NCBI GenBank assembly: GCA_903832855.1 | Contig: CAILDB010000014.1 | Span: 144 to 64,143, forward strand | Source: an uncultured bacterium | GTDB lineage: Bacteria > Patescibacteriota > Minisyncoccia > Phycocordibacterales > GWA1-40-21 | Reading direction: 5' to 3' | DNA length: 64,000 nucleotides | Part shown: in pieces, positions 36,825-56,463 of the stretch | Layout of the letters: every line of letters begins with the position of its first letter | Position numbering within the stretch: position 1 is the stretch's first letter | Position numbers and translations under genes: made by a program | Notes under the pieces: model-generated | Databases searched by the model: none | What the model saw: only the letters and a program-made list of their open reading frames with translations | What the model was told of the DNA's origin: nothing

Positions 36825-36825
36825 A

Positions 36826-36992
36826 GGAAAATGAGATTAAAAATTTTGTTAGGGGTGGCGATCCTGTTCCTTTTGAACTGACTTGGGAGGCTGACTGAGC
36901 CGAGCACGAGGAATTTTTTAGCAAAAAAATATCCGTGCAGTTCAAAAGGAATAGGTCGACAGGACCCCGTGAAATTTTTAATCTCATTTTCC
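36826..36992 (+). repeat. Family-1 structured palindromic element, copy 1 (~130-bp core), nested in the perfect outer palindrome ggaaaatgagattaaaaattt / aaatttttaatctcattttcc between convergent genes.
   Basis: Core nearly identical to 40831-40950. Confidence 0.6.
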
Positions 36993-36993
36993 T

Positions 36994-39522
36994 CTAATTC
37001 GTATTAAACAAAATAGTTTTTTCTGCTTTATTATAGACAGTGTCGGAGACGATGACTTTCAGCTCGTTATTTATTGGTTTTAAATTATTTGTTTCGCTTG
37101 GGACAAAGGAAATGTTGAAAGGAACATTTTTTGATGTGCCGAGATACTGACCATTTAGATAAAAATCAGCTTTTGCTGGGGCGTATTTAGAAACCACAGA
37201 AACTATCGGAGTCATTCTTTGGTCTTTGTTATAAATAGTATTTTCTGTCGGAGCGAGGAAAGTTATTTGTGGAAGGTTCGCCACTGTATGCACATCATCT
37301 GTTTGTGTTGGCTTTGTACTTGGTGTAATAGGGTTTGATAAAAGCCATTTTTGCACTGAATATTCCCAGTGCGAATATTGCATATCATCGTTTGGGTTTG
37401 CTAGTGCCGGACCGAGGGGATTATTTTTATCTACCCAGAATAATAACGAATGAATGTTCGTAACAGATTTTTCTACTCTAGTTTCTGGCGGAGTCAGGTC
37501 TGTCGCAAGTTTGCCGGAAATTTTGTCTATAAAATAAGTTTCATTTCCTTGCCACAAACCACGAAGAACGGGTTTAAGGTTTTGATCTGTCTGCGGAGGA
37601 GTAGGGAATTGTTCCACAGGCATATTTGGTAAAACCGTGTCCATAAAAGCTCTCCACATTGGAGCGATAATCATACCCGCCACCTTTTTTTCCATCGGAG
37701 AGTTATCATTGTTTCCTGCCCACGCGCCCACTGCCAAACTTGGCGTGTATCCGACTATCCAAACATCTTTGTAATCGTTTGTGGTACCGGTTTTTACTGC
37801 AACTGGTCTGCCAGGAAAATAAAGTGGAGAATTTTCTCCGTATGCGGGGGTTCTCGCGATATTATCTGTCAAAATATCAGAAATCTCTGCAGCGATATTT
37901 CCATCAAGAACGCTCACAGACCTTGGTTTATAATTTTCTATTATATTTCCGTTTTTATCTGTGACTGAAATTATAGAGACATAAGGGTTTCTTACTCCAT
38001 CATTTGCAAAAACGCCGTATGCGCTAGTAAGATCAAGAGGCGAGACCTCTCCACCTCCGAGGACGAGTGTGAGACCATATTGATCTGGATTATTTGATAA
38101 AGTTGTAATCCCCATATCCTGCGCTATTTTGATTGAGTCCCTTATTCCAGTAAGATAAAGCGTTTCTACCGATGGAATATTTCTGGATTGTGCAAGAGCG
38201 TCCCTTAGGGTCATTGGGCCAAGATAAAGTCCGTCATAATCGTCTGGCATATAACATTGCTTTGGATCACCGGATGGATTTATTGGGTTTCCGTCAGGAG
38301 TACAAGTGCTTTGGAATTCTGTCGGAACATCAAATAAAACAGTATCTGGAGTGTAACCTTTTTCAAAAGCAGTCGCATAAACAAAAGGTTTAAATGTAGA
38401 ACCCGGCTGTCTGTTTGCTATAGCAACATTGAAGTTTCCGTCTATCGCCTTATCAAAATAGTCACGAGAGCCCACCATTGATAAGATTTGCCCTGTTTTA
38501 GGGTCTATGGCCACAAGTGCCGCATTCTCTGCATTGAAAGCCACCTCATTTTTTAGGGCATATTCTTTGACCACGGCTTCAGCTTTTGTTTGCATATCAT
38601 AGTCTAGGGTTGTGATGACCTTATAGCCATTTACTGCTACCGCCTCTTCTCCATATTTATTAGTTAGATATTGTTTTACAAATTCCACAAAATGCGGAGC
38701 TCGAATACCAAAAGGATCTCGGGGTTGAAAGACAACCTTCTCATTTTTTGCTGAAGCGAATTCTTCTTTCGTAATAAATTTATTGTCTAGCATTTTTTGT
38801 AGAACAAGATTTTTTCTTATTTCAAGTCGTGCCATATTGTTGCCATATGGAGAATAAAAAGTTGGTGCTTGTGGTATTGCTGCGAGATATGCCGCCTCGG
38901 CGAGAGTGATATCGGCAGAACTTTTTCCAAAAAACATACGGCTTGCTTCTTCCACACCATAAATATTTCCTCCATAAGGGGTTTCATTTAAATAGACAGA
39001 AAGAATTTGATCTTTGGAATAAATTTGTTCTATTTTTAGGGAAAGGTAAAGTTCTTTGATTTTTCTTGCGATACTTTTGTCTGTCGTTAGAAGTGTGTTT
39101 TTTACAACCTGCTGAGTGATAGTAGAGCCACCTTGTGCATATCCTCCAGAAAAGAAGTTTGCTAAAGTTGCTCTGATCAAAGAAGTAATTCTTATGCCGT
39201 GATGACTATAAAATTCTGCGTCTTCAATCGCGACTGATGCGTTTTTAATATTTCTTGAAATTGTGTCAAAAGGTACTGCAGTTCTCTTGGTTCCTTGGTT
39301 GACATCATAAAGGAGAATTTTGCCGGTTCTGTCATAAATTTTCGTTGATTCTGCCACTTTTCTTGTCTCAAAAGAGTCCAAATCAGGCATTGTGAGAGTG
39401 GAAAGCCAGAAGGCGAGGATGCCGACAGTCAAAAAACCAAGAGTTAATATTCCAAAAACAGCTATTTTTATCCACTTCCTTGTTTTTTTGTGTAGGCGAA
39501 GATATTTTTGCTTGATTGTCAT
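36994..39522 (-). CDS. Class A penicillin-binding protein (transglycosylase plus transpeptidase).
   Basis: GT motif EDAEFYSHHGI; TP motifs STFKP and KTGTT. Start placed at MTIKQKY, excluding the upstream extension that overlaps tyrS. Confidence 0.8.
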   Translation of the reverse strand: MTIKQKYLRLHKKTRKWIKIAVFGILTLGFLTVGILAFWLSTLTMPDLDSFETRKVAESTKIYDRTGKILLYDVNQGTKRTAVPFDTISRNIKNASVAIEDAEFYSHHGIRITSLIRATLANFFSGGYAQGGSTITQQVVKNTLLTTDKSIARKIKELYLSLKIEQIYSKDQILSVYLNETPYGGNIYGVEEASRMFFGKSSADITLAEAAYLAAIPQAPTFYSPYGNNMARLEIRKNLVLQKMLDNKFITKEEFASAKNEKVVFQPRDPFGIRAPHFVEFVKQYLTNKYGEEAVAVNGYKVITTLDYDMQTKAEAVVKEYALKNEVAFNAENAALVAIDPKTGQILSMVGSRDYFDKAIDGNFNVAIANRQPGSTFKPFVYATAFEKGYTPDTVLFDVPTEFQSTCTPDGNPINPSGDPKQCYMPDDYDGLYLGPMTLRDALAQSRNIPSVETLYLTGIRDSIKIAQDMGITTLSNNPDQYGLTLVLGGGEVSPLDLTSAYGVFANDGVRNPYVSIISVTDKNGNIIENYKPRSVSVLDGNIAAEISDILTDNIARTPAYGENSPLYFPGRPVAVKTGTTNDYKDVWIVGYTPSLAVGAWAGNNDNSPMEKKVAGMIIAPMWRAFMDTVLPNMPVEQFPTPPQTDQNLKPVLRGLWQGNETYFIDKISGKLATDLTPPETRVEKSVTNIHSLLFWVDKNNPLGPALANPNDDMQYSHWEYSVQKWLLSNPITPSTKPTQTDDVHTVANLPQITFLAPTENTIYNKDQRMTPIVSVVSKYAPAKADFYLNGQYLGTSKNVPFNISFVPSETNNLKPINNELKVIVSDTVYNKAEKTILFNTN

Positions 39523-39592
39523 TCTCAAAATGATACCACAAAAATGAAACCTTAGACAGGACAAAAAACTTTTCTTGTGATATATTTTAGGG

Positions 39593-40807
39593 ATGAAAAT
39601 AGACACAGATGAGAAAAAAATAGATGAATTATTAACCCGCAGTGTTGTTAGTATTCTTCCGTCTAAGGACGATTTTAAAAAACTTTTATTAAGTGGCAAG
39701 AAATTAAGGATTTATGTTGGTGCAGATGCTACTGGAGCAAAGTTACACATAGGACATTCAACTAATTTTATGATTCTGGAAAAGTTTAGACAACTTGGCC
39801 ATGAAGTGATTATTTTATTCGGAGATTTTACTGCAAAAATTGGAGACCCTAGTGGTAAAGATAATGCTAGAAAACCACTGACAGATAATGAAGTCAAACA
39901 AAATCTAAAAACATGGGAAAAACAGCTAGGCAAAATTATAAAAATCAGTCATTTTAATAATGGAGCAAAAGTTGTCAGAAATAGTGAATGGCTTTCAAAA
40001 ATGAATTTTTCCGATGTAGTAAAATTGGCTTCAAACTTTACTGTTCAGCAAATGATGGAGAGGGATATGTTTCAAAAAAGATTGGAAGAAAAGAAACCTA
40101 TTTATTTGCATGAATTTTTTTATCCACTAATGCAAGGGCAGGATTCTGTGGTCTTGGATGTGGATGTAGAAATTGGGGGCAACGACCAAACCTTTAATAT
40201 GCTTGCTGGGCGAACCTTACAAAAAATTGCAAGAAATAAAGAAAAATTTGTGATGCCAACTACATTATTAATTAATCCTAAAACTGGGAAAAAATTGATG
40301 AGTAAGAGTGAAGGGAATGTAATTGGTTTGGATGATGAGTATAATGATATGTTCGGTAAGGCAATGTCCTTGCCAGACGAAACAATCATTTCCGTTTTTG
40401 TTGATTGTACTTATGTCTCAATGGAAGAAGTTGAAAAAATAAAAAAAGAAATGGAAAGCGGGGCCAATCCGCGAGACGCTAAGCTAAAATTAGCAAAAGA
40501 AATCGTGACTATTTATCATGGAAAAGATATGGCTGAAAAAGCCGAGCAGAATTTTATAAATACTTTTAAAAAAGGCGGATTGCCAGAGAATTTAGAGGAG
40601 GTAAAAGTGGTAGCGGGGGAATTGCTAGGCAAAATTCTTGTTTCAGGAGGGATTGTTTCTTCCAACACTGATTTTAGAAGACTCGTGGGAGAAGGAGCGG
40701 TCTCTGATGTAGTATCTGGAGAAAAAATAGAAAAAGTTGACTTTAAAATTGAAAAAAGTATAGTAGTGAAAGTCGGAAAAAAGAGGTTTGTAAAAATTGT
40801 TATTTAA
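39593..40807 (+). CDS. tyrS: Tyrosyl-tRNA synthetase with C-terminal S4 domain.
   Basis: HIGH (KLHIGHS) and KMSKS (KLMSKSEGN). Confidence 0.8.
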   Translation: MKIDTDEKKIDELLTRSVVSILPSKDDFKKLLLSGKKLRIYVGADATGAKLHIGHSTNFMILEKFRQLGHEVIILFGDFTAKIGDPSGKDNARKPLTDNEVKQNLKTWEKQLGKIIKISHFNNGAKVVRNSEWLSKMNFSDVVKLASNFTVQQMMERDMFQKRLEEKKPIYLHEFFYPLMQGQDSVVLDVDVEIGGNDQTFNMLAGRTLQKIARNKEKFVMPTTLLINPKTGKKLMSKSEGNVIGLDDEYNDMFGKAMSLPDETIISVFVDCTYVSMEEVEKIKKEMESGANPRDAKLKLAKEIVTIYHGKDMAEKAEQNFINTFKKGGLPENLEEVKVVAGELLGKILVSGGIVSSNTDFRRLVGEGAVSDVVSGEKIEKVDFKIEKSIVVKVGKKRFVKIVI

Positions 40808-40812
40808 GATCT

Positions 40813-40961
40813 GATAAATCAAAAAATTTTGCTAGGGGTGGCGATCCTGTTCCTTTTGAACTGACTTGGGAGCGCGACTGGCGCGAGCACGAGGAATTTT
40901 TTAGCAAAAAAATATCCGTGCAGTTCAAAAGGAATAGGTCGACAGGACCCCGTGAAATTTT
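40813..40961 (+). repeat. Family-1 element, copy 2, nested in a different perfect outer palindrome gataaatcaaaaaattt / aaattttttgatttatc.
   Basis: Inner small stem gcgc/gcgc versus ggct/agcc in copy 1 (3 compensatory pairs). Confidence 0.6.
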
Positions 40962-40981
40962 TTGATTTATCCTATAAAAAG

Positions 40982-40990
40982 TTATCCACA
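40982..40990 (+). promoter_or_regulatory. Perfect DnaA box TTATCCACA.
   Basis: Exact 9-mer. Confidence 0.45.
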
Positions 40991-41079
40991 GTTTTATTAC
41001 TTTTACCATTTGCAAAAAAAATATAATATTAGAAAATATACATAATGCTCAAATATGAGCGATTAAAAAAATATAAATA

Positions 41080-41331
41080 ATGAAAAATAAAGATAAAAGT
41101 AAAACAAGAGGTGAAGAAATAGATGGTGTTAAAGAAAAAGAAGATGGTGATGAGGAAAAAGTAAAAGAAACAAATCCAGATGTATTAGATGCGGCTTTTG
41201 AGGCAGAGGTTCCAGTCGTGGGGACAGAAGAGGTAGGTGAAGTGGGAGAGGATGCCGAGGGACTTGCGATTGATGATCCAGAGGATGATATGATAGATTC
41301 AGGAGATTTTAGAGTTTTGAATGAGTGGTAA
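41080..41331 (+). CDS. Small acidic (D/E-rich) hypothetical protein. The strand choice is uncertain against the overlapping minus-strand S/P-rich ORF.
   Basis: Purine-rich on plus; low complexity. Confidence 0.3.
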   Translation: MKNKDKSKTRGEEIDGVKEKEDGDEEKVKETNPDVLDAAFEAEVPVVGTEEVGEVGEDAEGLAIDDPEDDMIDSGDFRVLNEW

Positions 41332-41338
41332 CAGGTGT

Positions 41339-41471
41339 AGGAAAAGACGCGAGAAAATTTTTCTAACAGCCTCTTCGCAAAGTACTTAAAAACGTCCCAA
41401 GTCCGGACAGGGACGTTTGTAAGCACTTTGCTTCGCGTCTGTTTTAAGAAAAATTTTCTCGCGTCTTTTTC
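41339..41471 (-). repeat. GTCCC...GGGAC-family repeat in reverse orientation, nested in the outer palindrome aggaaaagacgcgagaaaatttttctaacag / ctgttttaagaaaaattttctcgcgtctttttc between convergent genes.
   Basis: Reverse complement matches 58842-58925. Confidence 0.55.
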
Positions 41472-41473
41472 TT

Positions 41474-41971
41474 TTACTTAACTCTACTTGTTGCAAAAAA
41501 AGTCAGCCCTATCGCTATCGCATCATACTCATCGTCATGTTTAATTTCTTTTTCTATTTTCACCAATCTTTTTACCATCTCCGTAATCTGAATTTTATCA
41601 CTTTTTCCATATCCCGTCACTGCAATCTTTACCGCCATCGGCGAATATTCGTAAATTTCTAAACCATTTCTTTTGCCTTCATACATTATCACCCCACGAG
41701 CTTCTGCGACCTGCATCGCAGATTTCTGATTTTTTGCAAAAAATAAAGTTTCTATCGCGAGCCTCTCCGGTTTGTATTTTTTAATCACTTCTTCCAACTC
41801 TTTTCCAATCAAATTTAATCTTTCACTATGAGGCAATTTTGCAGAAGTCTTGAAGCATTCCGAAAAAAGCAATTTTTCTTTGCCATTTTCTTTTTCAAGG
41901 ACTGCCACACCGAGCCTTTCATATCCCGGATCTACCGCTATAATTCTAGTTATTTTTGTGATATTTGACAT
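41474..41971 (-). CDS. ruvC: Holliday junction resolvase RuvC.
   Basis: IIAVDPGYERLGVAV...DEYDAIAIGL. Confidence 0.85.
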   Translation of the reverse strand: MSNITKITRIIAVDPGYERLGVAVLEKENGKEKLLFSECFKTSAKLPHSERLNLIGKELEEVIKKYKPERLAIETLFFAKNQKSAMQVAEARGVIMYEGKRNGLEIYEYSPMAVKIAVTGYGKSDKIQITEMVKRLVKIEKEIKHDDEYDAIAIGLTFFATSRVK

Positions 41972-42051
41972 AAGTTTTGTGTTTGCTATACTGTAACTCT
42001 ATATGGCCTTCGGGCTCGGAACCGCTTTCGAAAGAAGGCGGTTTCATATTT

Positions 42052-42456
42052 TTACTCTTCCATATCTATTATTTCCTTCATCATTTTTTTTATTTCTAAA
42101 TAATCTTCTCCTTTAATATACCCCATTTTATCTATCAATCTTTTACTGTCTATTAATTTTATCTGAGAAAGATTTGCAGTATTTCTAACTTTCAATTCTA
42201 AAATCTTAAAACTATAATAATATTTCCCTTTTTTATTTTTTGTCGTTAAGGGCAATGCCCAAAATGTTTCTGCATTAAATTTTTTAAATATCAAAACAGG
42301 TCTCTTAAATTCCTCGTGCTTTCCATCTTGTTCATATCCAACATTAAGACCCAAATGACACCACCACACTTCTTTTTCTCTAAAAAAGATATCCTTCATA
42401 TCTTTTTCGTCGATAACTTTTTTCCTATTATTCCACTTATCAAACTCTTTTTGCAT
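42052..42456 (-). CDS. MazF/PemK-family toxin-like protein (orphan; no adjacent antitoxin ORF).
   Basis: EVWWCHLGLNVGYEQDGK...KRPVLIF...SQIKLIDSKRL pattern. Confidence 0.45.
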   Translation of the reverse strand: MQKEFDKWNNRKKVIDEKDMKDIFFREKEVWWCHLGLNVGYEQDGKHEEFKRPVLIFKKFNAETFWALPLTTKNKKGKYYYSFKILELKVRNTANLSQIKLIDSKRLIDKMGYIKGEDYLEIKKMMKEIIDMEE

Positions 42457-42584
42457 AATAAAAAATATTATATCACAAAACCAATGGCTTTTTGTTTTAT
42501 GATTATTTTGATATGATAAATATACAGTGGCTTTGGCCTTGCCCTCTTCGGAGGGAGAAAGTAAAAAGTACCGAAAGGTTCCGA

Positions 42585-42612
42585 GAAACCCCGCTAATTA
42601 ATTAGCGGGGTT
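42585..42612. terminator. Perfect palindromic hairpin ccccgctaatt/aattagcgggg.
   Basis: Read directly. Confidence 0.45.
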
Positions 42613-42620
42613 TCGATTTT

Positions 42621-43151
42621 CTACTCCGCATTCGTATACACATCCTGCACCTCATCGTTTTCTTCTAGATCGTCAATTAGTTTTTCTAGTTTCGGTTCAT
42701 CTTCTTCGGAAACAGGGGTCGTCATTTTTGGAGTCCATTCACCATCTTTTTTTTCAAATGCCCAAGATGCACTTCCTGGAGCGGCGAGGGAAGAGCCATT
42801 TTCCGAAAGAATATGTTTTACTTCTCCAGCAGCTTTGTTTCTGTTGTCGGTAAGAGCTTCAATAATAATTGCGACTCCACCAGGACCATATGCTTCATAA
42901 GTTACGGATTCCATTTCCGCACCGCCTTTTTCAGATGCTTTTTTGACCGCTCTATCAATACTGTCGTTTGGCATATCTATTGACCTCGCTTTTTCTATTG
43001 CAGAACGAAGTTCAGGAGAATTTACATCACCTTTTGATTTTCTTGAGGCAACCGAAATCAGCTTTACCATTTTTGAAAAAACTTTGCTTTTCTGTGCATC
43101 ATTTTTTGCTTTTAGCCTCTTAATTTTAGAAAATTTATTGTGTCCGGACAT
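42621..43151 (-). CDS. YebC/PmpR-family regulator (reduced; lacks part of the middle domain).
   Basis: GHNKFSKIKRLKAKNDAQKSKVFSKMVKLI... Confidence 0.7.
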   Translation of the reverse strand: MSGHNKFSKIKRLKAKNDAQKSKVFSKMVKLISVASRKSKGDVNSPELRSAIEKARSIDMPNDSIDRAVKKASEKGGAEMESVTYEAYGPGGVAIIIEALTDNRNKAAGEVKHILSENGSSLAAPGSASWAFEKKDGEWTPKMTTPVSEEDEPKLEKLIDDLEENDEVQDVYTNAE

Positions 43152-43258
43152 AATAAGAACATCTTATCAGAATTGTGGATTTTTTCAATGCAAAATAATA
43201 ATAACTGTGCTATTCTTTGTTTTAGAAAATAGTCCTTTACATCAAACAAGGGGGTGTT

Positions 43259-43714
43259 ATGAAGTCGCGTTTTATTGTTGATAGTTTCCGCCTATGGATA
43301 GATTACGGTTGGTATCATCGTTTGGCTATAGTGGCCATTTTTCATTTTAACAGGCAAATCACTTATAAAGAGGTTCGCCAAAGAATGAAAAGAGTTGGTT
43401 TCCATCCTGGAAATTACAACTGTCTTGTCGCTGCTTGGCGAGCTAGGCAGGTTCTCCCAAACGCGGTGATCGTCGCTCCGGCTACGAAGGATATTGTAGA
43501 CGGAACTGCTAAATCTCCATATTTTTGGATAGCAGATGAAGAGATTTCTTTGGATTATGTTTACCGATATGGACGCCCGGAAATTTGGCAGAAACACTGG
43601 CATTTTTTTGCCGTAAAATGGATAGGTAAGCCAGAGTCATATCCTCTTCCTGTCCGGTCAAGTCCTGATTTTTGGAAATTAGTTGAGGGGATGAAAAGGA
43701 CAATAGTCGTTTGA
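43259..43714 (+). CDS. Hypothetical protein with higher GC; possible Cys/His papain-like fold (NCLVAAW...HWHFF).
   Basis: ORF plus a strong terminator. Confidence 0.4.
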   Translation: MKSRFIVDSFRLWIDYGWYHRLAIVAIFHFNRQITYKEVRQRMKRVGFHPGNYNCLVAAWRARQVLPNAVIVAPATKDIVDGTAKSPYFWIADEEISLDYVYRYGRPEIWQKHWHFFAVKWIGKPESYPLPVRSSPDFWKLVEGMKRTIVV

Positions 43715-43721
43715 AGTCCGA

Positions 43722-43754
43722 GGGCGGTTCGTTGCGAACCGCCCTTTTCTTTTT
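43722..43754 (+). terminator. Strong rho-independent terminator gggcggttcg-ttgc-cgaaccgccc plus a T-run.
   Basis: Read directly. Confidence 0.7.
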
Positions 43755-43832
43755 CAAATTGACAAAAAATATTCCTGCGAGTATAGTTAATAACGGAAGA
43801 GGACACTAAATAATGTTAGTAAGGAGATTCTA

Positions 43833-44051
43833 ATGATACATGCAAGCACATTACTCAACAAGTTGTTTGAGGCGGGATGGAATGAGTGTGAAATTGAGGA
43901 GGCCTGTTCCGAAACATCCGATCTTTTTGCCCAACTTCATGAAGTGAAGATGGGAAATGCCAAGATCGTGACGAATGAAGATTGGGAAGAATTCATTACC
44001 TTTCGTTCGCGCAGTCAGTACAGTCGTGAAGATGGGCGAAGGTTTCGATAA
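43833..44051 (+). CDS. Small acidic hypothetical protein (72 aa).
   Basis: ORF followed by a sister terminator. Confidence 0.35.
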   Translation: MIHASTLLNKLFEAGWNECEIEEACSETSDLFAQLHEVKMGNAKIVTNEDWEEFITFRSRSQYSREDGRRFR

Positions 44052-44074
44052 ACATGCGTGAAGTAGTATGATAA

Positions 44075-44111
44075 GGGCCGGTTCGCGGAGCGAACCGGCC
44101 CATATTTTTTT
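44075..44111 (+). terminator. Strong terminator gggccggttcg-cggag-cgaaccggccc plus TTTTTTT.
   Basis: Same ggttcg...cgaacc design as 43722-43754. Confidence 0.7.
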
Positions 44112-44113
44112 CT

Positions 44114-45196: not shown

Positions 45197-45237
45197 TTTT
45201 GTTGGGCCTTTTTGTTTCTTTTAGAATTTTTTGAAAG

Positions 45238-45403
45238 TGGAGAGCATAAATCTCTAAACAATTGAATCTCGCAAGAGTATTTACGAATTTGTTTTCAAGG
45301 ACATTCTGGTTTTAATCTTCGGATTACTGCTGGGGTTATCCTTAAAGCCAAGTTTAACTTTACACGCCAAGTTTAAAGTATTGTTTAGAGATTTCTGCTC
45401 CCG
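45238..45403. repeat. Element bounded by a 21-bp imperfect inverted repeat (gagcataaatctctaaacaat / attgtttagagatttctgctc) with an internal direct repeat ccaagtttaa.
   Basis: Read directly. Confidence 0.35.
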
Positions 45404-45489
45404 ACTCTATTAATTTCAATGTCCTACTTTTCCAATACTATTCTCTTGTAAAATAAAATCAAGCAACTTAAAAAATTAAAGAACACTTC

Positions 45490-47166: not shown

Positions 47167-47216
47167 ACTGCAAATATGATAACATTTTTTGCCTAAAAGC
47201 TTCAATTTTTTAGTGC

Positions 47217-47245: not shown

Positions 47246-47265
47246 GGTATGTAGGAGGATCTGAA

Positions 47266-47499: not shown

Positions 47500-47504
47500 T
47501 GACA

Positions 47505-47536
47505 GGGCGCGCTTGCAGCAAGCGCGCCCTTTTTCT
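47505..47536 (+). terminator. Strong terminator gggcgcgcttgc-a-gcaagcgcgccc plus TTTTT.
   Basis: Read directly. Confidence 0.7.
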
Positions 47537-47554
47537 TTGCCTCCATTTTTGTTA

Positions 47555-47999
47555 TTATGCCCCTATGAGACTCATTAGCAAAAGTCTAGAAAACACCGAA
47601 GAAATTGCAAAAGATTTTGTTGAAAAACTTTCCTTTGGTGTTCACGAAAACGCTTGCGTTGTCGGCCTTTACGGTGACCTTGGTTCAGGAAAAACAACTT
47701 TTACAAAATCTGTGGCAAAAATTCTTGGTGCAAAAGAAAATATTACTAGCCCGACTTTTGTTATTGAAAAAATCTATAATATTTCGCATCTTTTTTTTAC
47801 AAAACTGATTCACATTGACGCCTACCGACTTGAATCGGCCGAAGAACTCCAAAAACTTTCTTGGGCAGAAACTTTGGCAAATGCAAAAAATCTTATTTTA
47901 ATAGAATGGCCGGAAAATGTTTTAGAAATTCTGCCAGAAAATCATATGAAAATTAATTTTAAATTTGTTTCGGAAAATGAAAGGGAAATAGAGATTTAA
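47555..47999 (+). CDS. tsaE: tRNA t6A biosynthesis protein TsaE (YjeE ATPase).
   Basis: VVGLYGDLGSGKTTFTK...SPTF. Confidence 0.75.
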
Positions 48000-48033
48000 A
48001 ATTTCAATACTTTTTTGTGATAAGATAGCGACT

Positions 48034-50472: not shown

Positions 50473-50497
50473 ATTTGCTGCACCTCCAAAATTTTTT

Positions 50498-50528
50498 GAT
50501 GGCAAATTTTACTACGGGGTGATATAAT
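50498..50528 (+). promoter_or_regulatory. Half-palindrome motif gatggcaaattttactacggggtg plus extended -10 TGaTATAAT, 7 nt before the ATG (leaderless).
   Basis: Same family as 29119 and 53380. Confidence 0.5.
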
Positions 50529-50534
50529 TTTCCT

Positions 50535-51392
50535 ATGTTAAATAATAATTCAAAAGAAATCACTCAAATCGCTTTATTTAAAAAGAAAGAAATAAGAAAG
50601 AAAATTTATAATGGTGAATGGTGGTTTGTGATTAATGATGTCATTGAAGCTTTGACTGATTCAGCTGACCCCGCACAATATTTTAAACGCATGAAAGAGC
50701 GTGATTTAGAATTAGATAAATTAGTTAGTCAAGGGGGGGTACAATTTGTACCACCCCTTATGCTTGAGTTTGAAACTAGTGGTGGTACACAAAAAATGTA
50801 TTGCTGGCATACAGAAGGGATGTTTCGCCTCGTCCAATCAATCCCATCTCCTAAAGCTGAGCCCTTTAAACGCTGGTTGGCAAAAGTCGGCTATGAAAGA
50901 GTTCAAGAAATTGAAAATCCGGAACTGGCTACAAAAAGGACGCGAATGCTTTATAAGCTGAAAGGATATTCCGATTCTTGGATAGAAAAAAGAATGCGGG
51001 GTATTGCAATTCGTGAAGAATTGACCGATGAATGGCAAAATAGGGGAGCAAAAGAAGAAAAGGATTATGAAATATTGACAGCAGAAATTTCCAAAGCAAC
51101 TTTTGGTATAACACCGACTGAATACAAAAAACTCAAAGGTCTTAAGCGAGAAAATTTGCGTGATCATATGGATGATTTTGAACTCATTTTCACAATGCTT
51201 GGAGAAAGGTCAACGACTGAAATTCATCGCCAAGAAAAATCTGTTGGTGTGCCAAAATTAAAACAAGATGCTCACCGTGGCGGAAGAGTTGCCGGAAACG
51301 CCAGAAAAGAATTGGAAAAAGAGCTCGGGCATTCAGTAGTTTCTAAACAAAATTATATTAAAAATCCAGAACACAGAAAAAGGTTGAAATAA
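50535..51392 (+). CDS. Bro-N domain protein (phage antirepressor-like).
   Basis: EWWFVINDVIEALT... is the Bro-N signature. Confidence 0.55.
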   Translation: MLNNNSKEITQIALFKKKEIRKKIYNGEWWFVINDVIEALTDSADPAQYFKRMKERDLELDKLVSQGGVQFVPPLMLEFETSGGTQKMYCWHTEGMFRLVQSIPSPKAEPFKRWLAKVGYERVQEIENPELATKRTRMLYKLKGYSDSWIEKRMRGIAIREELTDEWQNRGAKEEKDYEILTAEISKATFGITPTEYKKLKGLKRENLRDHMDDFELIFTMLGERSTTEIHRQEKSVGVPKLKQDAHRGGRVAGNARKELEKELGHSVVSKQNYIKNPEHRKRLK

Positions 51393-51417
51393 AAATTATT
51401 TCTGATATATTTACCAT

Positions 51418-53253
51418 ATGGAAAATTACGAAAAACATCCCTTACATCTCAAAATCCCCGAACTTCAGCAGAGCGAAGAAGTTGCCGAAGCAGTAGAAAA
51501 GCAAGAACGCCTGACCGGCGAGGATTTACCGAACGACCCCAACGAAAGAATAGAAGCGTATATGGATCGTTTGGAAAACATCTTTCTCAATCCAGACGAA
51601 CGAGTTCGCGAGCGTAATCTTGAAATGCTCCGCCCTGCCATCTATGATGCTCTCATCATCAAACCCGAGCAAGTTCCAGAATCATATTTTGAACTTCAAC
51701 AGCAAGTAGCTCGTGAACGAGGCCAACCCGTGGAAACAATTCCTCAAAACGTCCGTGAACAAATGATAGATACTGTCATTGAAGACCAAAGACACTCCTT
51801 GGATCAATGGATGGAATATTTGACATCGGATGATGTAGCATACCCGACATGGTTTAAATATTTTGTTTGGAGAAATGTTGTCAAATTATCGCAATTTGAT
51901 AAGACACTTGGAAAATTCAAAACAAGAACGGATTCTACAGTCGCTCCATATCCCGATATCTATCGTGCACCACTTGCAAAAATCCTAGACATTTACGAAC
52001 AAGTTGCGGGAGATAACAGTAAACTCAAAGACCCACAAATTCAAGTCGAATTTTCCAAAAGATTTCCCAAATTATATGCTGAGTTTATCAGTGAGTCATT
52101 AGCCGTTACCATTGAAAGCAAGGAACAAATCAAAGGTAAATGGATTAAATACAATAAAGGTAATCAAAAAGAAGCGGATAAACTTTTTGATTCTATGCAA
52201 GCTAAAGGCACAGGTTGGTGTATAGAAGGTCGCACTACTGCCAGAAACTATGTTGAACAAGGCGACTTCTATGTCTATTATACATATGACAAAGATGGTA
52301 ATCCAATTCAGCCAAGAATTGCTATACAAATGAACGGTTCTGAAATAGGGCAGATTCGAGGAATCCAAGCTCATCAAGAACTAGAGCCAATAATGAGCGA
52401 TATTCTAGACGAAAAACTAAAAAGTTTTGGTCCAGAAGCCGACAAATACAAAAAGAAATCGACTGATATGAAGCACCTCACCGAAATAGACAACAAGACA
52501 AAAGCAAATCAACCACTTACAAAAGACGAACTTTTCTTTCTATATGAAGTCAACGCAAGTATCGAAGGTTTTGGCTATGCTAAAGACCCCCGCATTGAAG
52601 AAATACGAGACAAAAGAAATATCAAAGAAGACCTGCCAATTCTTTTTGATTGCACACCAAATCAAATCGCCACAACTCCGGAAGAACTTACTGCAGACAC
52701 AGTTGCATACATCGGCCCTTGGACTCCAGTTGTATTAAATCAACTCCCAAAAACCGTCAAACATATTTACGAGAAATTTCCTGATCAAAAAGCTTTCTTA
52801 AAAGAAATTACCCCTGACCCGGAAATTAATTCTGCCGATACTGCCATCGCCAAACTAGAAGCCGAGGGCCACACAATGGGTGATTACGGAAAAGATATGC
52901 TTGCAAAAGTGAATTGGGCAGAACAACTCAAATCTTCCTACGAAGTCGTCTCTTTCACGGTCGGAGAACTCTTCGATGACAGAGATGTCCACACATATGC
53001 CGATATCAAATCAAAAGCCCAAGAACTTGGTCTTGACCTTGTCCCGCAAGCTCTTGCCCCCTCTATTCGTTTGAATTATCCAAAGGATGGTGAATGGACA
53101 AATATTGCAATGAATGCAATACGCGACCGCGATGGCTACCTCAGGATTTTCCACTGCAACGGGCGTGGCTCGAAGTCGTGGCTTGGTCTCAGCAGCGGTC
53201 GTGACGACGGCAGGTGGCACGACGGCAGTCGCTTCTTCTTTGTCCGCAAGTAA
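51418..53253 (+). CDS. DGR target (variable) protein; the C-terminal ~45 aa form the variable region.
   Basis: The C-terminus ...RDRDGYLRIFHCNGRGSKSWLGLSSGRDDGRWHDGSRFFFVRK matches the TR-encoded ...RDRDGNLRIFNCNRNGSKSWLDNNNGRDDNKWNDNNRFFFVRK. Higher GC than neighbouring genes. Confidence 0.8.
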   Translation: MENYEKHPLHLKIPELQQSEEVAEAVEKQERLTGEDLPNDPNERIEAYMDRLENIFLNPDERVRERNLEMLRPAIYDALIIKPEQVPESYFELQQQVARERGQPVETIPQNVREQMIDTVIEDQRHSLDQWMEYLTSDDVAYPTWFKYFVWRNVVKLSQFDKTLGKFKTRTDSTVAPYPDIYRAPLAKILDIYEQVAGDNSKLKDPQIQVEFSKRFPKLYAEFISESLAVTIESKEQIKGKWIKYNKGNQKEADKLFDSMQAKGTGWCIEGRTTARNYVEQGDFYVYYTYDKDGNPIQPRIAIQMNGSEIGQIRGIQAHQELEPIMSDILDEKLKSFGPEADKYKKKSTDMKHLTEIDNKTKANQPLTKDELFFLYEVNASIEGFGYAKDPRIEEIRDKRNIKEDLPILFDCTPNQIATTPEELTADTVAYIGPWTPVVLNQLPKTVKHIYEKFPDQKAFLKEITPDPEINSADTAIAKLEAEGHTMGDYGKDMLAKVNWAEQLKSSYEVVSFTVGELFDDRDVHTYADIKSKAQELGLDLVPQALAPSIRLNYPKDGEWTNIAMNAIRDRDGYLRIFHCNGRGSKSWLGLSSGRDDGRWHDGSRFFFVRK

Positions 53254-53257
53254 CTCT
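53118..53257 (+). repeat. DGR variable region (VR).
   Basis: ~140 bp aligned to the TR; 19 of 20 mismatches, including all inside the cgcgaccgc...gtccgcaa core, fall at positions where the TR has A; one off-A mismatch in the terminal gtaactc/atcactc tail. Confidence 0.85.
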
Positions 53258-53329
53258 TTTTTCTAATATCTTTTACCTTATATTATCCCTTTTTCCTTTT
53301 AACTTTTTTCTTTTAAAAATTTTGTGATA

Positions 53330-53400
53330 CCCCGTAGTGAAATTTGCCATCAAAAAATTCTCTAATTTTTTTAAAAATAATGGCAAATTCTACTACGGGG
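53330..53400. promoter_or_regulatory. Split palindrome ccccgtagtgaaatttgccat-N29-atggcaaattctactacgggg between VR and TR. The right arm is followed by a -10-like gataagataat and points into the TR.
   Basis: Arms are perfect reverse complements. Confidence 0.5.
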
Positions 53401-53630
53401 TGATAAGATAATACAGAAAGTAGGCGAATATGTCGGCGATTACGGTTTCCGACTGCCGAAATTAGTATCCATACATCGAGAGTATCCGTGATCAAGGTTT
53501 CGGGTAGAGTGGTGTATGAAGACCTTCAAAAAATGAAGTTACTTGGTTCGGAATCTAGGGCATTTATAAATGCCGAATTCGATTCAATCCTGAGAGTATT
53601 CAAAGGGTGGTGGTATAGGAGGGTTCCGAA

Positions 53631-53770
53631 CAAACGCGACCGCGATGGCAACCTCAGGATTTTCAACTGCAACAGGAATGGCTCGAAGTCATGGCTTGAT
53701 AACAACAACGGTCGTGACGACAACAAGTGGAACGACAACAATCGCTTCTTCTTTGTCCGCAAATCACTCA
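53631..53770 (+). repeat. DGR template repeat (TR), AAC/Asn-codon-rich; it gives rise to the spurious ORF 53488-53871.
   Basis: Offset +513 from the VR; adenines mark every VR difference. Confidence 0.85.
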
Positions 53771-54121
53771 TTTCTCTCTCGCTTTTGCGAGAGAGTTTTG
53801 TTTTAGTGTTCTTCCAAGCCAACCACCGAGTTCCTTACCTATTTCATTTGTTCTTTCCGAAAGCCAGATGAATTTCTTGTCTTCAAGAGATTTATTTTCC
53901 CAAAGAATGAGCAAAAAAACATTTAATGTGTTGATTTTTCTGATTGCTAATCTGATGTAGGGGGCTTTTTCTTCTTGTGACAGAAAAGTGGCGATAGCTA
54001 CCGCCTCTATTATGTCAGTAAATAAATTATCTACCTTTTGACCGAGAGTGTGCCTGTGGTTTTTCGGCAATATCTGATAATATTCATACCAAAACTTGTA
54101 AACGGTTTTGATTTCTTGCAT
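53768..54121 (-). CDS. avd: Avd-like accessory variability determinant (four-helix-bundle, IVS-protein family), encoded on the strand opposite to TR and RT; its stop overlaps the TR 3' end.
   Basis: YKFWYEYYQILPKNHRHTLGQKVDNLFTDIIEAVAIA is a typical Avd/23S-IVS pattern. Start placed at ATG 54121 (MQEIKT); the ORF track extends to a TTG through the poly-G run. Confidence 0.65.
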   Translation of the reverse strand: MQEIKTVYKFWYEYYQILPKNHRHTLGQKVDNLFTDIIEAVAIATFLSQEEKAPYIRLAIRKINTLNVFLLILWENKSLEDKKFIWLSERTNEIGKELGGWLGRTLKQNSLAKAREK

Positions 54122-54140
54122 TATCGGCAATAATTTTAGT

Positions 54141-54151
54141 GGGGGGGGGGG
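54141..54151. repeat. 11-nt G homopolymer in the 50-bp divergent avd/RT promoter region.
   Basis: tagtgggggggggggcttt read directly; exceptional in a ~35% GC genome. Confidence 0.6.
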
Positions 54152-54170
54152 CTTTATAGTTGTCTTTTTT

Positions 54171-55175
54171 ATGTCCAAAATTAAATTCGTTCATAAGTAT
54201 GAAGATATCATAAAAACAGAAAACCTGCTAGAAGCATGGAAGGAATTTTTGCGTGGGAAAAAGAAAAAAGATGATGTGCAGATTTTTGAAAGAAATTTGA
54301 TGCAGAATATTTTCTCTCTTAATGCGGATTTGAAAACGAGAACCTACGAACACTCCAAATATGAGGCCTTTAATATCTCTGACCCTAAGCCAAGAACAAT
54401 TCATAAAGCGAAAGTTAGAGATAGACTTTTACACCACGCTATTTATAGATATTTATATCCATTTTTTAATAAAACTTTTATTGCCGACTCTTTTTCTTGT
54501 CGTCTGGATAAGGGAACGCACGGAGCAATAAAAAGATTAGACGGATTTTATCTAAAGGTCTCAAAAAACAATACAAAACAGGTCTGGGTTTTGAAATGTG
54601 ATGTTCGCAAGTTTTTTGATTCCATAAACCACGAGATTCTCTTAAATATTTTGGATTCATATATTGAAGATAAAGAAGTCACAGAGCTTTTAAGAAAAAT
54701 AATATCCAGTTTTTACAAAAAAGAAGTTGGTGTGGGGCTACCTCTCGGAAATCTAACCTCCCAGCTTTTTGTGAATATCTATATGAACATTTTTGATCAA
54801 TTCGTAAAACACAAATTGAAAGCAAAATGCTATATCAGATATTCTGATGATTTTGTTATTTTGTCGAAAAACAAGGAATGGCTTGAAAGTATTTTGCCAA
54901 AAATTACCGACTTTCTTAGCGAAAGACTCAAACTTTCTTTGCATCCAAACAAAGTATCAATCAAAACATTTTCTTCCGGCACGGACTTTCTCGGCTGGGT
55001 GAATTTTCATAATCACAAAGTACTTAGAACGAGAACAAAAAAGAGAATGTTTAGGAATATTTTGGCGAAGAATTTCAAAAAGGAAGTGGTGCAGTCGTAT
55101 TTGGGGTTGTTGAGCCATGGAAATACAAATAAAATAAAAAATAATTTGTTGAGGCAAATTCCAGTTTCCTTTTAA
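54171..55175 (+). CDS. DGR reverse transcriptase.
   Basis: RT motifs PKPRTIHKAKVRDRLLHHAI, CDVRKFFDSINHE and YIRYSDDFVIL (YxDD). DGR-diagnostic GLPLGNLTSQ (IGxxxSQ). Start at ATG 54171. Confidence 0.85.
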   Translation: MSKIKFVHKYEDIIKTENLLEAWKEFLRGKKKKDDVQIFERNLMQNIFSLNADLKTRTYEHSKYEAFNISDPKPRTIHKAKVRDRLLHHAIYRYLYPFFNKTFIADSFSCRLDKGTHGAIKRLDGFYLKVSKNNTKQVWVLKCDVRKFFDSINHEILLNILDSYIEDKEVTELLRKIISSFYKKEVGVGLPLGNLTSQLFVNIYMNIFDQFVKHKLKAKCYIRYSDDFVILSKNKEWLESILPKITDFLSERLKLSLHPNKVSIKTFSSGTDFLGWVNFHNHKVLRTRTKKRMFRNILAKNFKKEVVQSYLGLLSHGNTNKIKNNLLRQIPVSF

Positions 55176-55203
55176 AGGGCGGGTTCAAATTGAACACCCC
55201 CTT

Positions 55204-55232
55204 CCAGTTGTACGATAATTTCGTACAACTGG
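55204..55232. terminator. Bidirectional terminator, perfect 12-bp stem ccagttgtacga-taatt-tcgtacaactgg.
   Basis: Read directly. Confidence 0.6.
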
Positions 55233-55245
55233 AATTATTAACTAC

Positions 55246-56286
55246 TTATTTTACTTCTTCCAAAAATTTTAGGACTTTTTCGTTGACAAGGATCATTTCT
55301 ACATAAGCTTTTATTCTTTCAGGTGGAACATCTTTGTAATGTTCCTGCATATGCTTGCTTTCCTTTTCCACATCTTCCTTTGGTGCCTCTATTTTTTCTT
55401 CAATAGCTATTTTGTTTAAGATAAGCTGAAGTTTGGCTCTTTTTTCTGCGTCGGGAGTCCATTCTTTTCTCAAATCTGCCCAGGTTTTCTTTGTGTGTTT
55501 GAGATAATCTTCGGTTTTTATTCCTGACTTTTTAATATCATCTTCAAATTGCGCCTGCATTTTATCAAGTTCGCTTTCAACAAGGATTTTTGGCATTTTT
55601 ATTTCTGATTTTTCTGTAATTCCATCAAGTACAAGCATTCTTCTCTTGTCTTGAGCTCTCCTTTCTTTTTCTTTCAAAATGTTTTCCTTCATTTTATCTT
55701 TGAAGTCTGCGACATCCTTAAAAGCACCAAGTTTTTTTACAAACTCATCATTAATTTCAGGAAGTACGGGTTCTACTTTAGGTTCGCCTTCTTTCTGAGG
55801 CACAACAAACATTTTTCTGATTTGTTCTATGGTTTCTTCAATTTCTTTTTCTTCCACAACAACTTTTTCTGCAGGTTTTGAATTTTCTTTGGAAGCGATT
55901 TTTTTGTAGTCAGGCAACTTTACTTCTGGGGAAGTAGTAACGACAATTTTTATCTCAACCGGCGCACCAAGTGCAATTTTTGTAATAGAGATATCCGGTC
56001 TGCCCAAAAAGTTTGGAACATTTTCAATAATTAGCTCAATCAAGGATGAATCAATGGCGATTTCCACAGCATTTTCTAGGATGGCCATTTCACCAACCTT
56101 TTCTTTAATAACTTTTTCTGGAATATGACCTGGCCTGAAGCCTGGCAAAGAAATCTTTTCACCAAGGCTTTTAAGGGCCTTTACTTTGTATTCCTCAAGA
56201 TTTTCCGCTGATATTTCAGCAATTATCTCCACTTCGCAATTACCGGCATCTTTCTTACTTTTTGTCGTAAATATATTTTTATTCAT
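55246..56286 (-). CDS. tig: Trigger factor (reduced).
   Basis: GFRPGHIPEKVIKEKVG motif. Confidence 0.8.
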   Translation of the reverse strand: MNKNIFTTKSKKDAGNCEVEIIAEISAENLEEYKVKALKSLGEKISLPGFRPGHIPEKVIKEKVGEMAILENAVEIAIDSSLIELIIENVPNFLGRPDISITKIALGAPVEIKIVVTTSPEVKLPDYKKIASKENSKPAEKVVVEEKEIEETIEQIRKMFVVPQKEGEPKVEPVLPEINDEFVKKLGAFKDVADFKDKMKENILKEKERRAQDKRRMLVLDGITEKSEIKMPKILVESELDKMQAQFEDDIKKSGIKTEDYLKHTKKTWADLRKEWTPDAEKRAKLQLILNKIAIEEKIEAPKEDVEKESKHMQEHYKDVPPERIKAYVEMILVNEKVLKFLEEVK

Positions 56287-56322
56287 ATTGTGCTAGTCTA
56301 TATTAAATTTTGAAAAAGTAAA

Positions 56323-56463
56323 CTAGAAAAAATAGAAACCTCGTAGCAAAATGCTTTTGAAATGCCTTGGGAGGAGCGGCTGGCGACGGACAGAGAAAAT
56401 TTCTAGCAAGAAATTTTCGTGCATTTCAAAAGTTTTTTGTGGAGAGGTTTTTATTTTTTCTAG
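56323..56463. repeat. Diverged third member of the family-1 structured element (gcttttgaaatgccttgggagg ... cgtgcatttcaaaag), nested in the outer palindrome ctagaaaaaatagaaacctc / gaggtttttattttttctag in the tig upstream region.
   Basis: Shares ttttgaa.tg.cttgggagg and cgtgca.ttcaaaag with copies 1 and 2. Confidence 0.45.

Follow-up and report, generated by a model that had tools for sequence, protein, structure and literature searches.

A probably mobile family of palindromic hairpin repeats with a conserved three-way-junction centre and copy-specific outer stems in Patescibacteria (CPR)

The 64-kb stretch of a Patescibacteria (CPR) genome analyzed here in full (the window) contains three recent insertions, c1, c2, and c3, of a palindromic hairpin repeat that belongs to a family not described before and probably mobile. 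The family is defined by a conserved three-way-junction centre and an outer stem that varies from copy to copy; its fold has been maintained through compensatory changes and with a clear strand asymmetry, and its copies are insertion polymorphisms between relatives.

Copies of the repeat and their conserved fold

The three copies are intergenic hairpin elements of ∼140 to 170 bp each (111 to 185 bp over the family), and a filters-off covariance-model search of the window returned exactly these three (Table 1). Eight further copies were found in related Paceibacteria/Minisyncoccia contigs, giving 11 that are spread over at least four to five organisms, 3 of them in the ∼29 kb sampled of contig JBAVTE010000012; the family is so far known from this narrow clade of Patescibacteria. 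A pattern scan of genome contigs yielded one true match (L011) and five chance matches (L009, L010, and L012 to L014) that model R2 did not recognize, and viral contigs scanned for the element gave no matches. Other contigs encoding the same proteins came from the same strain (at least 99.98% identity) and thus provided no new alleles. The ORFs that cross the elements are spurious and different in each copy, leaving the repeat without coding capacity, and a protein database search with the translated core, aimed at mis-called ORFs, returned only the same strain's own call.

All 11 copies are intergenic and lie beside housekeeping genes (the dnaN operon, tyrS, tig, recA/efp, rpsR, khpA/trmD, and hsp20), in both orientations relative to them. 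Seven are on the same strand as the upstream gene and start a few nucleotides past its stop codon, and four (c3, L011a, L017, and L015) are antisense to both neighbors or to the adjacent upstream gene. Within the window, c1 sits between the stop codons of an 84-aa ORF (36822-36824, plus strand) and PBP1 (36994-36996, minus strand), and it is the only one of the three to show the convergent arrangement that an earlier reading of the sequence alone had ascribed to the copies. In the case of c2, the neighbors are tyrS (plus strand) and a small ORF (41080-41331, plus strand) that is called in relatives with its frame conserved, and c3 is antisense both to an 83-aa ORF (56473-56724, minus strand) and to tig (55246-56286, minus strand). 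Copy c2 also precedes a DnaA-box region (TTATCCACA, near 40983); the GC skew of the window has no clear switch.

Table 1. Coordinates of the repeat and of the related family D1 in the window (fold, minimum free energy; z, score against dinucleotide shuffles; bits, scores with models R1 and R2)
Feature	Coordinates	Strand	Remarks
c1, whole palindromic insert	36825..36993	+	169 bp; fold -79 kcal/mol, z -10.9
c1, conserved type-A unit	36839..36979	+	AAAAATTTTGTTA-GGGG...CCCC-GTGAAATTTTT; 141-nt direct repeat with c2
c1, three-way-junction core	36866..36952	+	R1 111 bits, R2 106 bits
c2, whole palindrome	40813..40971	+	begins 5 nt past tyrS stop; fold -66 kcal/mol, z -7.5
c2, three-way-junction core	40849..40935	+	P4 GCGC/GCGC; R1 114 bits, R2 109 bits
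c3, whole copy, type-B scaffold	56322..56464	+	fold -64 kcal/mol, z -8.9
c3, three-way-junction core	56350..56436	+	P4 degenerate; R1 70 bits, R2 73 bits
D1, shorter related family	58827..58939	.	without P4 and P5
D1, other copy	26485-26576
D1, other copy	33694-33799
D1, other copy	41339-41472

The sequence-only reading had proposed a core shared by c1 and c2 whose fold is a long hairpin enclosing two smaller ones, together with a diverged third member upstream of tig. The shared core is a 141-nt repeat (36839-36979 versus 40822-40962) of 95% identity, such a hairpin was predicted in each copy, and the third member is c3, which model R1 recovers at an E value of about 1e-14. That reading had placed the only internal difference between c1 and c2 in a small stem; six of the seven differences do fall in three covarying P4 pairs (GGCU/AGCC versus GCGC/GCGC), but the seventh is a T/C change (GTTA/GCTA). 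It had likewise described perfect outer palindromes of completely different sequence, and the arms are indeed perfect (21 to 22 bp in c1 and 17 to 20 bp in c2), but their inner 8 to 9 bp (AAAAATTT/AAATTTTT) are common to both and part of the conserved unit, the differing part being only the distal 13 bp of c1 and the distal 8 to 9 bp of c2.

The cores of c1, c2, and c3 form an 87-nt three-way junction composed of P3, an unpaired UUGGGAG, P4 (loop GACUG), and P5 (loop AGCA); in c1 the joining segments are GACUUGGGA between P3 and P4 (GGCU/AGCC) and GA between P4 and P5. The unit under constraint is this junction of ∼87 nt, or 117 to 139 nt with the type-A scaffold. In an 11-copy alignment that was fitted to the model, which favors structure, and in which six copies are nearly identical to one another, 95% of the pair cells hold a base pair, and 21 of the 32 pairs have undergone double (compensatory) changes. 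None of 500 shuffles reached the observed covariation values and slid controls were at most 55% paired, so that the compensatory changes first noticed in a single stem prove to be genuine across the family. G·U pairs number 18 in the alignment and A·C pairs are absent, which indicates that only one strand conserves the fold, and the model strand folds better in all 11 copies, by 2 to 20 kcal/mol. The single-stranded motifs UUGGGAG, GACUG, and AGCA are invariant, except that UUGGGAG is replaced in L019b, and structure-preserving substitutions are present even among young copies.

A search of the whole window with the Rfam 15 covariance models gave nothing at gathering score, and matches to c1 and c3 at an E value of 10 or better were generic miRNA-precursor hairpins, with no ribozyme model among them. 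A hammerhead-like reading of CUUGGGAG-stem-GAG was rejected, with the catalytic consensus lacking and no model matching. The sequence ACTTG may resemble phiX174/pC194-type Rep nick sites, and the TAGCAA loop may resemble the ssoA CS-6 motif; neither resemblance has any part in our conclusions.

Empty sites and mobilization of the repeat

A relative with 91 to 93% protein identity (L005/L018) was compared over 12 kb; it has none of the three copies and no palindrome at the sites. At the c1 site, L005, L007, and L008 have no insert and their convergent genes overlap by 4 nt, and the empty allele of L005 and of the outgroup L007 is simply a CTAG or CTAA overlap. The c2 insert is absent from L005 with no trace of its outer arms, and in L016 a type-A copy has inserted independently elsewhere in the equivalent spacer. 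In L018, c3 is absent, tig overlaps the 83-aa ORF in the sequence TAATG, and again no trace of an arm is seen. Because the empty sites have no palindrome, the c1 site being a 4-nt overlap in the outgroup as well, the outer arms appear to have arrived with the insert. Plain long hairpins are rapidly gained and lost in these genomes, so a two-step history with the hairpin first and the element later may also apply. Candidate target duplications are TA, TAA, or YTAA at c1 (ancestral CTAG/CTAA versus TTAA...CTAA) and CT or none at c2 (TCTAT versus TCT...CTAT), and the insertion at c3 includes extra non-palindromic sequence.

The 117-nt GGGG..CCCC cores of type-A copies differ by only 1 to 8 positions (93 to 99% identity) across organisms, unrelated loci, and different genera, and the c1 core differs at a single position from that of L011a, in another genus; the organisms that share these cores have Tig proteins 70 to 75% identical and other proteins 76 to 88% identical. 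The distal arms of six type-A copies have nothing in common beyond AAAAATTT, and a search elsewhere in the window for their source found none. The type-B outer arm is partly conserved between c3 and L011b, at unrelated loci in different genera, an outcome that the sequence-only reading had itself named as one that would refute it.

We consider there to be about an even chance that the repeat is a non-autonomous selfish mobile palindromic element, REPIN- or MITE-like, that is recognized as a folded single strand. The presence/absence polymorphism, the near-identical cores across genera, and the absence of coding capacity are in keeping with the non-autonomous mobility suggested at the outset. 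A folded strand of one polarity (ssDNA or RNA) would be recognized in trans by a factor whose gene lies elsewhere in the genome, in a manner analogous to the recognition of REPINs by RAYT and of IS200/IS605 ends by TnpA, and we infer mobilization through a single-stranded intermediate. New copies would insert into short spacers between genes, and even where stop codons overlap, with each copy bringing a long outer stem whose distal part would be unconstrained in sequence and may originate by carry-over from donor copies or by fold-back copying. The inserted 140- to 185-nt hairpin would then be carried in the transcripts of neighboring genes, probably as a transcript-end or terminator-like structure. 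Neither the window nor ∼140 kb of related loci encodes a transposase, RAYT/Y1, IS110, or other mobilizing gene, the only recombination-related genes being an Xer-like integrase and a diversity-generating retroelement (DGR) reverse transcriptase. A link to the DGR reverse transcriptase was considered and dropped, with nothing beyond its proximity to c3 (∼1 kb) to recommend it. Against mobility stand this lack of a mobilizing gene, the ambiguous target duplications, and the lack of conserved element ends among type-A copies, and we know of no transposase family that would be expected to tolerate the last of these.

Alternative readings of the conserved centre

The invariant unpaired motifs, together with structure-preserving substitutions in young copies, would be equally well explained by a functional RNA, and we regard it as a serious, though less likely, alternative that the repeat is a multicopy structured RNA, either a small RNA that acts in trans or a 3'-end element that acts in cis, which would have spread by horizontal transfer and gene conversion. 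Its junction might bind a protein or, through the Shine-Dalgarno-like GGGAG/GGAGG, the ribosome, or might be catalytic, with the long closing stem serving as protection. The strong covariation, the G·U pairs without A·C, and the better folding of one strand in every copy are all consistent with such an RNA, as is the co-orientation of 7 of the 11 copies with the upstream gene, and the near-identity of cores across genera could equally reflect purifying selection. The four antisense copies argue against it, as do the absence of all three copies from the closest relative in the compared 12 kb, the unrelated palindromic families that fill the same intergenic slots in relatives, the degenerate P4 of c3 and the replaced UUGGGAG of L019b, and the lack of any Rfam family or ribozyme model at an E value of 10 or better. 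Flanking arms differ in every copy, and there is accordingly no conserved promoter upstream; a promoter consensus scan was uninformative.

Other palindromic families of the window share the design of the repeat. D1 has type-B scaffold motifs (G-N-A GCAAAGTG ... CATTTTGYG-R-AG) plus the same ACTTGGGA, and both D1 and a further family, E, have a conserved centre with unique perfect arms. The L018 orthologue of the D1 copy at 58827 has similar arms and an inverted core, and the copy at 41339 is absent from L005. Several structured palindromic insert families together make up ∼3% of this CPR genome segment and turn over quickly between relatives with 91 to 93% protein identity. Patescibacteria (CPR) genomes are small. 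We think it unlikely, but worth stating, that CPR bacteria have a class of mobile DNA defined by structure, to which the repeat and the unrelated families E and D1 would all belong. Recognition in such a class would involve the central folded module alone, with each insertion bringing or generating a perfect outer palindrome of its own. Integration may then proceed by fold-back (snap-back) synthesis with the folded core as primer or at the dyad of cruciforms, and if the class is real, its integration route would be one not described for bacterial MITEs. Alternatively, such hairpins may carry the conserved junction as a passenger, in the form of a new ribozyme or a protein-binding RNA.

The sequence-only reading had the element inserting into the loops of pre-existing bidirectional terminators, and in the corresponding model a minimal mobile unit (the ∼139-nt type-A unit or the 87-nt junction) enters the apical loop or dyad of an existing hairpin, whose arms are host sequence. 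These genomes have many long, perfect hairpins whose loops are 3 nt (L006 1132-1198, 11703-11749, and 13084-13128; window 15938-15980), L006 acquired a plain GC-rich hairpin at the c1 site, and L019a is a conserved unit with an arm of only ∼10 bp and no distal arms. The same inner junction is found in three scaffolds, with L015 combining a type-B scaffold and a type-A-like junction, and the centres of E and D1 within unique arms and the precedent of IS elements that target REP hairpins point the same way. We nevertheless judge this model quite improbable, since the empty sites of c1 (in two lineages), c2, and c3 hold no palindrome or arm remnant, the distal arms are AT-rich, lack the GC-rich apex of plain terminators, and run straight into the conserved unit without the remnant of a loop, and unrelated loci share part of the type-B arms.

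That the copies are ordinary bidirectional intrinsic terminators or chance hairpins, immobile, evolved in place and with a functionless core, is scarcely credible: their location at gene ends, the A-rich 5' and T-rich 3' arms (an A-run and a T-run flank the GGGG/CCCC stem at a distance of 6 to 8 nt), and the frequency of hairpins in the window would suit it, but it is already contradicted by the covariation of an asymmetric three-way junction, unexpected for a simple terminator, by 117-nt cores that are 93 to 99% identical between unrelated loci and between genera, and by insertion sites that are empty in close relatives, and the outer hairpins were not called by a consensus terminator scan.

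Relation to known elements and significance

Classical bacterial MITEs, such as the Correia elements of Neisseria and ERIC/IRU of enterobacteria, are defined by a target duplication of fixed length and by conserved terminal inverted repeats whose sequence matches that of a parent IS. The repeat resembles them in its size (100 to 200 bp, below the 300-bp limit for such non-coding elements), inverted-repeat architecture, intergenic position near gene ends, multiple copies with presence/absence polymorphism between strains, expected co-transcription as a long RNA hairpin, and possible TA-type target duplication at c1. Unlike a MITE, it varies from copy to copy in its terminal 8 to 30 bp, its duplication is of ambiguous length, and neither the window nor the ∼140 kb of related loci contains a parent IS. 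Folded single strands serve as recombination substrates in IS200/IS605 ends and their PATE derivatives and in integron attC sites, with which the repeat shares conservation of structure over sequence, a strand-specific fold, and conserved unpaired bases. It differs from IS200/IS605 ends and attC sites in having no conserved flanking tetranucleotide, R/L boxes (GTTRRRY), or cassette arrangement, and no cognate enzyme in the sampled DNA.

REPINs are REP doublets that form hairpins and are mobilized by the RAYT Y1 transposase, with two highly conserved REP ends and a variable spacer (PMC3116915; see also PMC3333891 and PMC2817692). Like them, the repeat is a non-coding, extragenic, imperfect palindrome on the 100-nt scale that is predicted to fold in ssDNA or mRNA, shows compensatory changes across the hairpin, and is dispersed in multiple copies with presumed mobilization in trans. 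The pattern of conservation is the opposite, however, with the centre conserved and the ends variable, and that centre is an asymmetric three-way junction rather than a simple spacer; the sampled DNA contains no RAYT gene, the repeat has no conserved GTAG-type 5' motif, and its copy number looks modest (∼3 per 64 kb). IS1397 and ISPpu9 (IS110 family) target the hairpins of REP or palindromic units (PMC1525189 and PMC12288879), which would yield the picture of a conserved insert within a palindrome that was initially proposed here. These are autonomous elements with transposase genes whose targets are pre-existing repeated REPs, whereas the repeat has no ORF, its arms are unique, and its empty sites lack palindromes.

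We found no description of interspersed structured repeats in Patescibacteria (CPR) in the literature searched. If mobile, the repeat would provide a tractable marker of how plastic genomes are and how DNA flows horizontally in an uncultivated lineage and would point to an enzyme that recognizes a folded three-way junction; if instead it is a functional RNA, it would represent a new and well-supported class of structured RNA, given the double changes in two-thirds of its pairs. Under either reading, the pattern of a conserved centre with free ends falls outside the existing definitions of MITEs and REPINs.

Copies, fold and spread of the family

The palindromic family represented in the window by copies c1, c2 and c3 is repeated, keeps a strand-specific fold, is polymorphic for insertion and occurs as near-identical copies in different genera. 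The sequence-only reading had located all three copies correctly and had counted c3 as a member, which does align to c1 and c2 across its centre; the long hairpins it described greatly exceed dinucleotide shuffles in stability (z = -10.9, -7.5 and -8.9 for c1, c2 and c3). The repeat common to c1 and c2 is 141 nt long and 95% identical, and six of its seven differences make up the three base pairs reported for the small stem, GGCU/AGCC versus GCGC/GCGC. The outer palindromes, which had been called completely different, are copy-specific in their distal 13 bp (c1) or 8-9 bp (c2), but their inner 8-9 bp, AAAAATTT/AAATTTTT, are common to both and part of the conserved unit. Convergent genes flank only c1: c2 has tyrS on one side and, on the other, a small ORF in the same direction that is kept in relatives, and c3 lies between two minus-strand genes.

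At the conserved centre, ~87 nt form a three-way junction composed of stem P3, a 9-nt single strand including UUGGGAG, hairpin P4 (stem of 4-5 bp, loop GACUG), the dinucleotide GA, and hairpin P5 (~35 nt, loop AGCA), which stacks back on P3. The enclosing scaffold is type A (GGGGUGGCGAUCCUGUUCC...GGAAUAGGUCGACAGGACCCC) in c1 and c2, type B (GUAGCAAAAUG...UUUUGUGGAG, with a purine-rich 3x3 internal loop) in c3, and type C in one known copy, L019b, from another genome or metagenome (as are all L-numbered loci). Beyond the scaffold an A-rich 5' arm pairs with a T-rich 3' arm, both variable in length and sequence: the distal arms of six type-A copies have nothing in common, and that of L019a is nearly absent (~10 bp). 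Two type-B copies, c3 and L011b, have part of the arm in common (AGAAAAAA..GAAAC) at unrelated loci in different genera. No source of the c1 and c2 arms was found within the window.

Across 11 copies, 10 of them distinct, standard pairs occupy 95% of pair cells and 21 of 32 pairs have changed on both sides; none of 500 shuffles equalled these values, and a slid-partner control brought pairing down to 37-55%. P4 occurs as GGCU/AGCC, GCGC/GCGC, GUCGC/GCGAC and GGCC/GGCC, always with the loop GACUG or a near variant, and P3 of copy L020c keeps its pairing with a wholly different sequence. Independent events are fewer than these counts imply, since the copies were aligned to the model and six of them hardly differ, but the covariation signal still greatly exceeds that of the controls. 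The pairs include 18 G·U and no A·C, and the model strand folds 2-20 kcal/mol better than its complement in every copy; the fold is conserved, on one strand.

One scan of 185,579 species genomes yielded a single true further copy (L011a, in a Minisyncoccia MAG), and one scan of JGI metagenomes yielded three (L015, L016, L017); since both demanded exact matches to conserved words, they under-sample diverged members. A junction covariance model, R1, applied to loci around homologous genes added four copies (L011b, L019a, L019b, L020c); it detected none in 12 kb of the closest relative (L005, L018) or 50 kb of remoter ones (L006, L007). A second model, R2, with filters off, recovered exactly the three window copies and rejected chance matches of the pattern scans; no Rfam family matches the element. 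The 117-nt type-A cores (c1, c2, L011a, L016, L017, L019a) differ at just 1-8 positions, and c1 differs at one position from L011a, from a genome whose Tig is only 70% identical to that of the window. Most of the few substitutions in these cores leave the structure unaffected: G·U and A-U replace each other in both directions, and a single double change turns CGA/UCG into CAA/UUG. Cores this similar point to recent horizontal spread or to strong constraint, or to the two together. Seven copies are sense and four antisense relative to neighboring genes.

Insertion at orthologous spacers

The genes flanking the copies are dnaA, dnaN, an 84-aa ORF, a class A PBP gene, tyrS, ruvC, tig and nusA, and the nearest TyrS and Tig homologues are labelled Patescibacteria, Paceibacterota or Minisyncoccia; from these genes and names we take the window to be DNA of a CPR bacterium, near its dnaA region. 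The proposal that the copies are insertions is borne out by presence and absence at orthologous spacers, where c1, c2 and c3 are all insertions relative to L005 and L018, two loci of one organism with proteins 91-93% identical to those of the window. At the c1 site of L005, a 4-nt overlap (tCTAGt) joins the 84-aa ORF to the PBP gene, and the outgroup (L007/L008) has the same overlap as CTAA, where the window reads TTAA-A[167-bp palindrome]T-CTAA; the entire 169-bp palindrome, arms included, was therefore inserted in the window lineage. The c2 site is taaTCTATTTTACAAGGAAAAGTTATCCACA in L005 versus TCT[element]CTAT in the window. The duplication flanking c1 can be read as TA, TAA or YTAA, target-duplication readings being based on two usable site pairs. 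At the c3 site of L018 the overlap of the 83-aa ORF with tig reads TAATG; the window is 186 bp longer there, through the palindrome and a further 9 and 36 nt outside it.

L016, from a congeneric organism (protein identity 76-88%), also carries a type-A copy after tyrS; with arms unlike those of c2 and a position at the opposite end of that spacer, it is an insertion independent of c2. In L019 and L020 (Tig 75% and 70% identical), the 83-aa gene has other family members at the end where c3 lies; the position is a hot spot, or else an old one at which copies turn over. The window TyrS is 72-76% identical to those of the distant relatives L006 and L007 and only ~58% identical to that of L016, against the trend of other L016 proteins, which suggests that tyrS was horizontally replaced in one lineage.

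Other palindromes and mobile functions

Two further window families, E and D1, share the design of a conserved centre with unique perfect arms. The arms of E are unrelated and 27-35 nt long, and its two window cores are oppositely oriented; in relatives, E elements after tyrS (L020) and upstream of dnaA (L005) fill the slots held in the window by c2 and the D1 copy D1b. The apical hairpin of D1 is GTCCC-TGGCCGGACTT-GGGAC, and D1 and type B have scaffold motifs and ACTTGGGA in common. The D1 copy at 41339-41472 is missing in L005. Upstream of nusA, orthologous D1 copies in the window and L018 have similar arms but opposite orientations of their asymmetric centre; arm-arm recombination can therefore flip the centre, and such flipping may account for the mixed orientation of family members with respect to their neighbors.

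Coordinates of features in the window and in related loci
Feature	Location	Remark
c1	36825-36993	
c2	40813-40971	
c3	56322-56464	
c1/c2 repeat	36839-36979; 40822-40962	
Family E	14364-14556; 62023-62210; L020 951-1192; L005 1-50	~190-240 bp palindromes
Family D1	26485-26576; 33694-33799; 41339-41472; 58827-58939; L018 1-45	~92-134 bp palindromes, four window copies
35-nt hairpin repeat	959-993; 26447-26481; 56738-56772	
ruvB-side element	45236-45406; L006 14256-14423; L007 15377-15548; L016 7019-7189; L020 3835-4005	~170 nt
Plain hairpins/intrinsic terminators	57549-57587; L006 7345-7370, 1132-1198, 11703-11749	
Split recombinase; methylase fusion and endonuclease	221-2530; 3996-6195	joint entry
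DUF3800-IX RNA motif	3837-3894	
tyrS	39593-40807; L016 2292-3473	
DGR	51418-55175	complete
DGR VR	53121-53264	3' end of ORF 51418-53253
DGR hairpin	53329-53401	
Small ORF at avd position	53488-53871	
DGR TR	53634-53777	
DGR reverse transcriptase	54108-55175	Pfam RVT_1

A GC-rich, REP-like 35-nt hairpin repeat (ATGGATCCCGGCCTSCGCCGGGATGACAG) occurs in this AT-rich genome, and its copy at 56738 is part of a ~56-bp insertion absent from L018. Beside ruvB, at the same locus in all relatives, lies an element that is a candidate for a housekeeping ncRNA inherited vertically; its long closing stem (AAATCTCTAAACAAT / ATTGTTTAGAGATTT) is conserved, and Rfam gave no match to it at E values up to 1. The sole non-tRNA Rfam match above gathering score is a DUF3800-IX RNA motif (39.9 bits versus a threshold of 36.8).

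Pfam scans of essentially all window ORFs detected no transposase; they detected a Xer-like integrase with an intein and the reverse transcriptase of a diversity-generating retroelement (DGR). The former is a tyrosine recombinase (Phage_integrase) split by an intein with a LAGLIDADG domain. A LexA/S24 peptidase-N6/N4 DNA methylase fusion adjoins a TaqI-like restriction endonuclease. In the DGR, A is on the TR side in 20 of the 22 VR/TR mismatches.

A proposed REPIN-like element and its rivals

The most economical reading is that the family is a selfish, non-autonomous element that would be recognized as a folded single strand, making it a putative functional analogue of REPINs. REPINs are described as folding into hairpins, whether as ssDNA or as mRNA, and as often carrying compensatory changes (PMC3116915); the folding hairpin and compensatory changes are alike in the two, whereas the pattern of conservation here is inverted.

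The main rival, a functional RNA, is favored by the invariant loops; arguing against it are the mixed orientation of the copies, the lack of any promoter conserved among them, the fact that the closest relative does without them, and the occupation of the same intergenic slots by unrelated palindromic families. The history may have had two steps, with a plain hairpin first and the element inserted later, since plain long perfect hairpins (loops of 2-4 nt) come and go between close relatives, as do intrinsic terminators; such hairpins with 3-nt loops are frequent in relatives. A GC-rich hairpin occupies the exact c1 site in L006, and L018 lacks the terminator hairpin that follows nusA in the window. 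Each site would, however, have had to pass through both steps on its own after the split from L005. Insertion into the loops of pre-existing terminator palindromes, as the sequence-only reading proposed, is the weakest of the three main readings on present data, because the c1, c2 and c3 empty sites contain no palindrome. As a selfish, REPIN-like element, the family would be mobilized in trans, through a single-stranded intermediate, and may exert a terminator-like effect once inserted.
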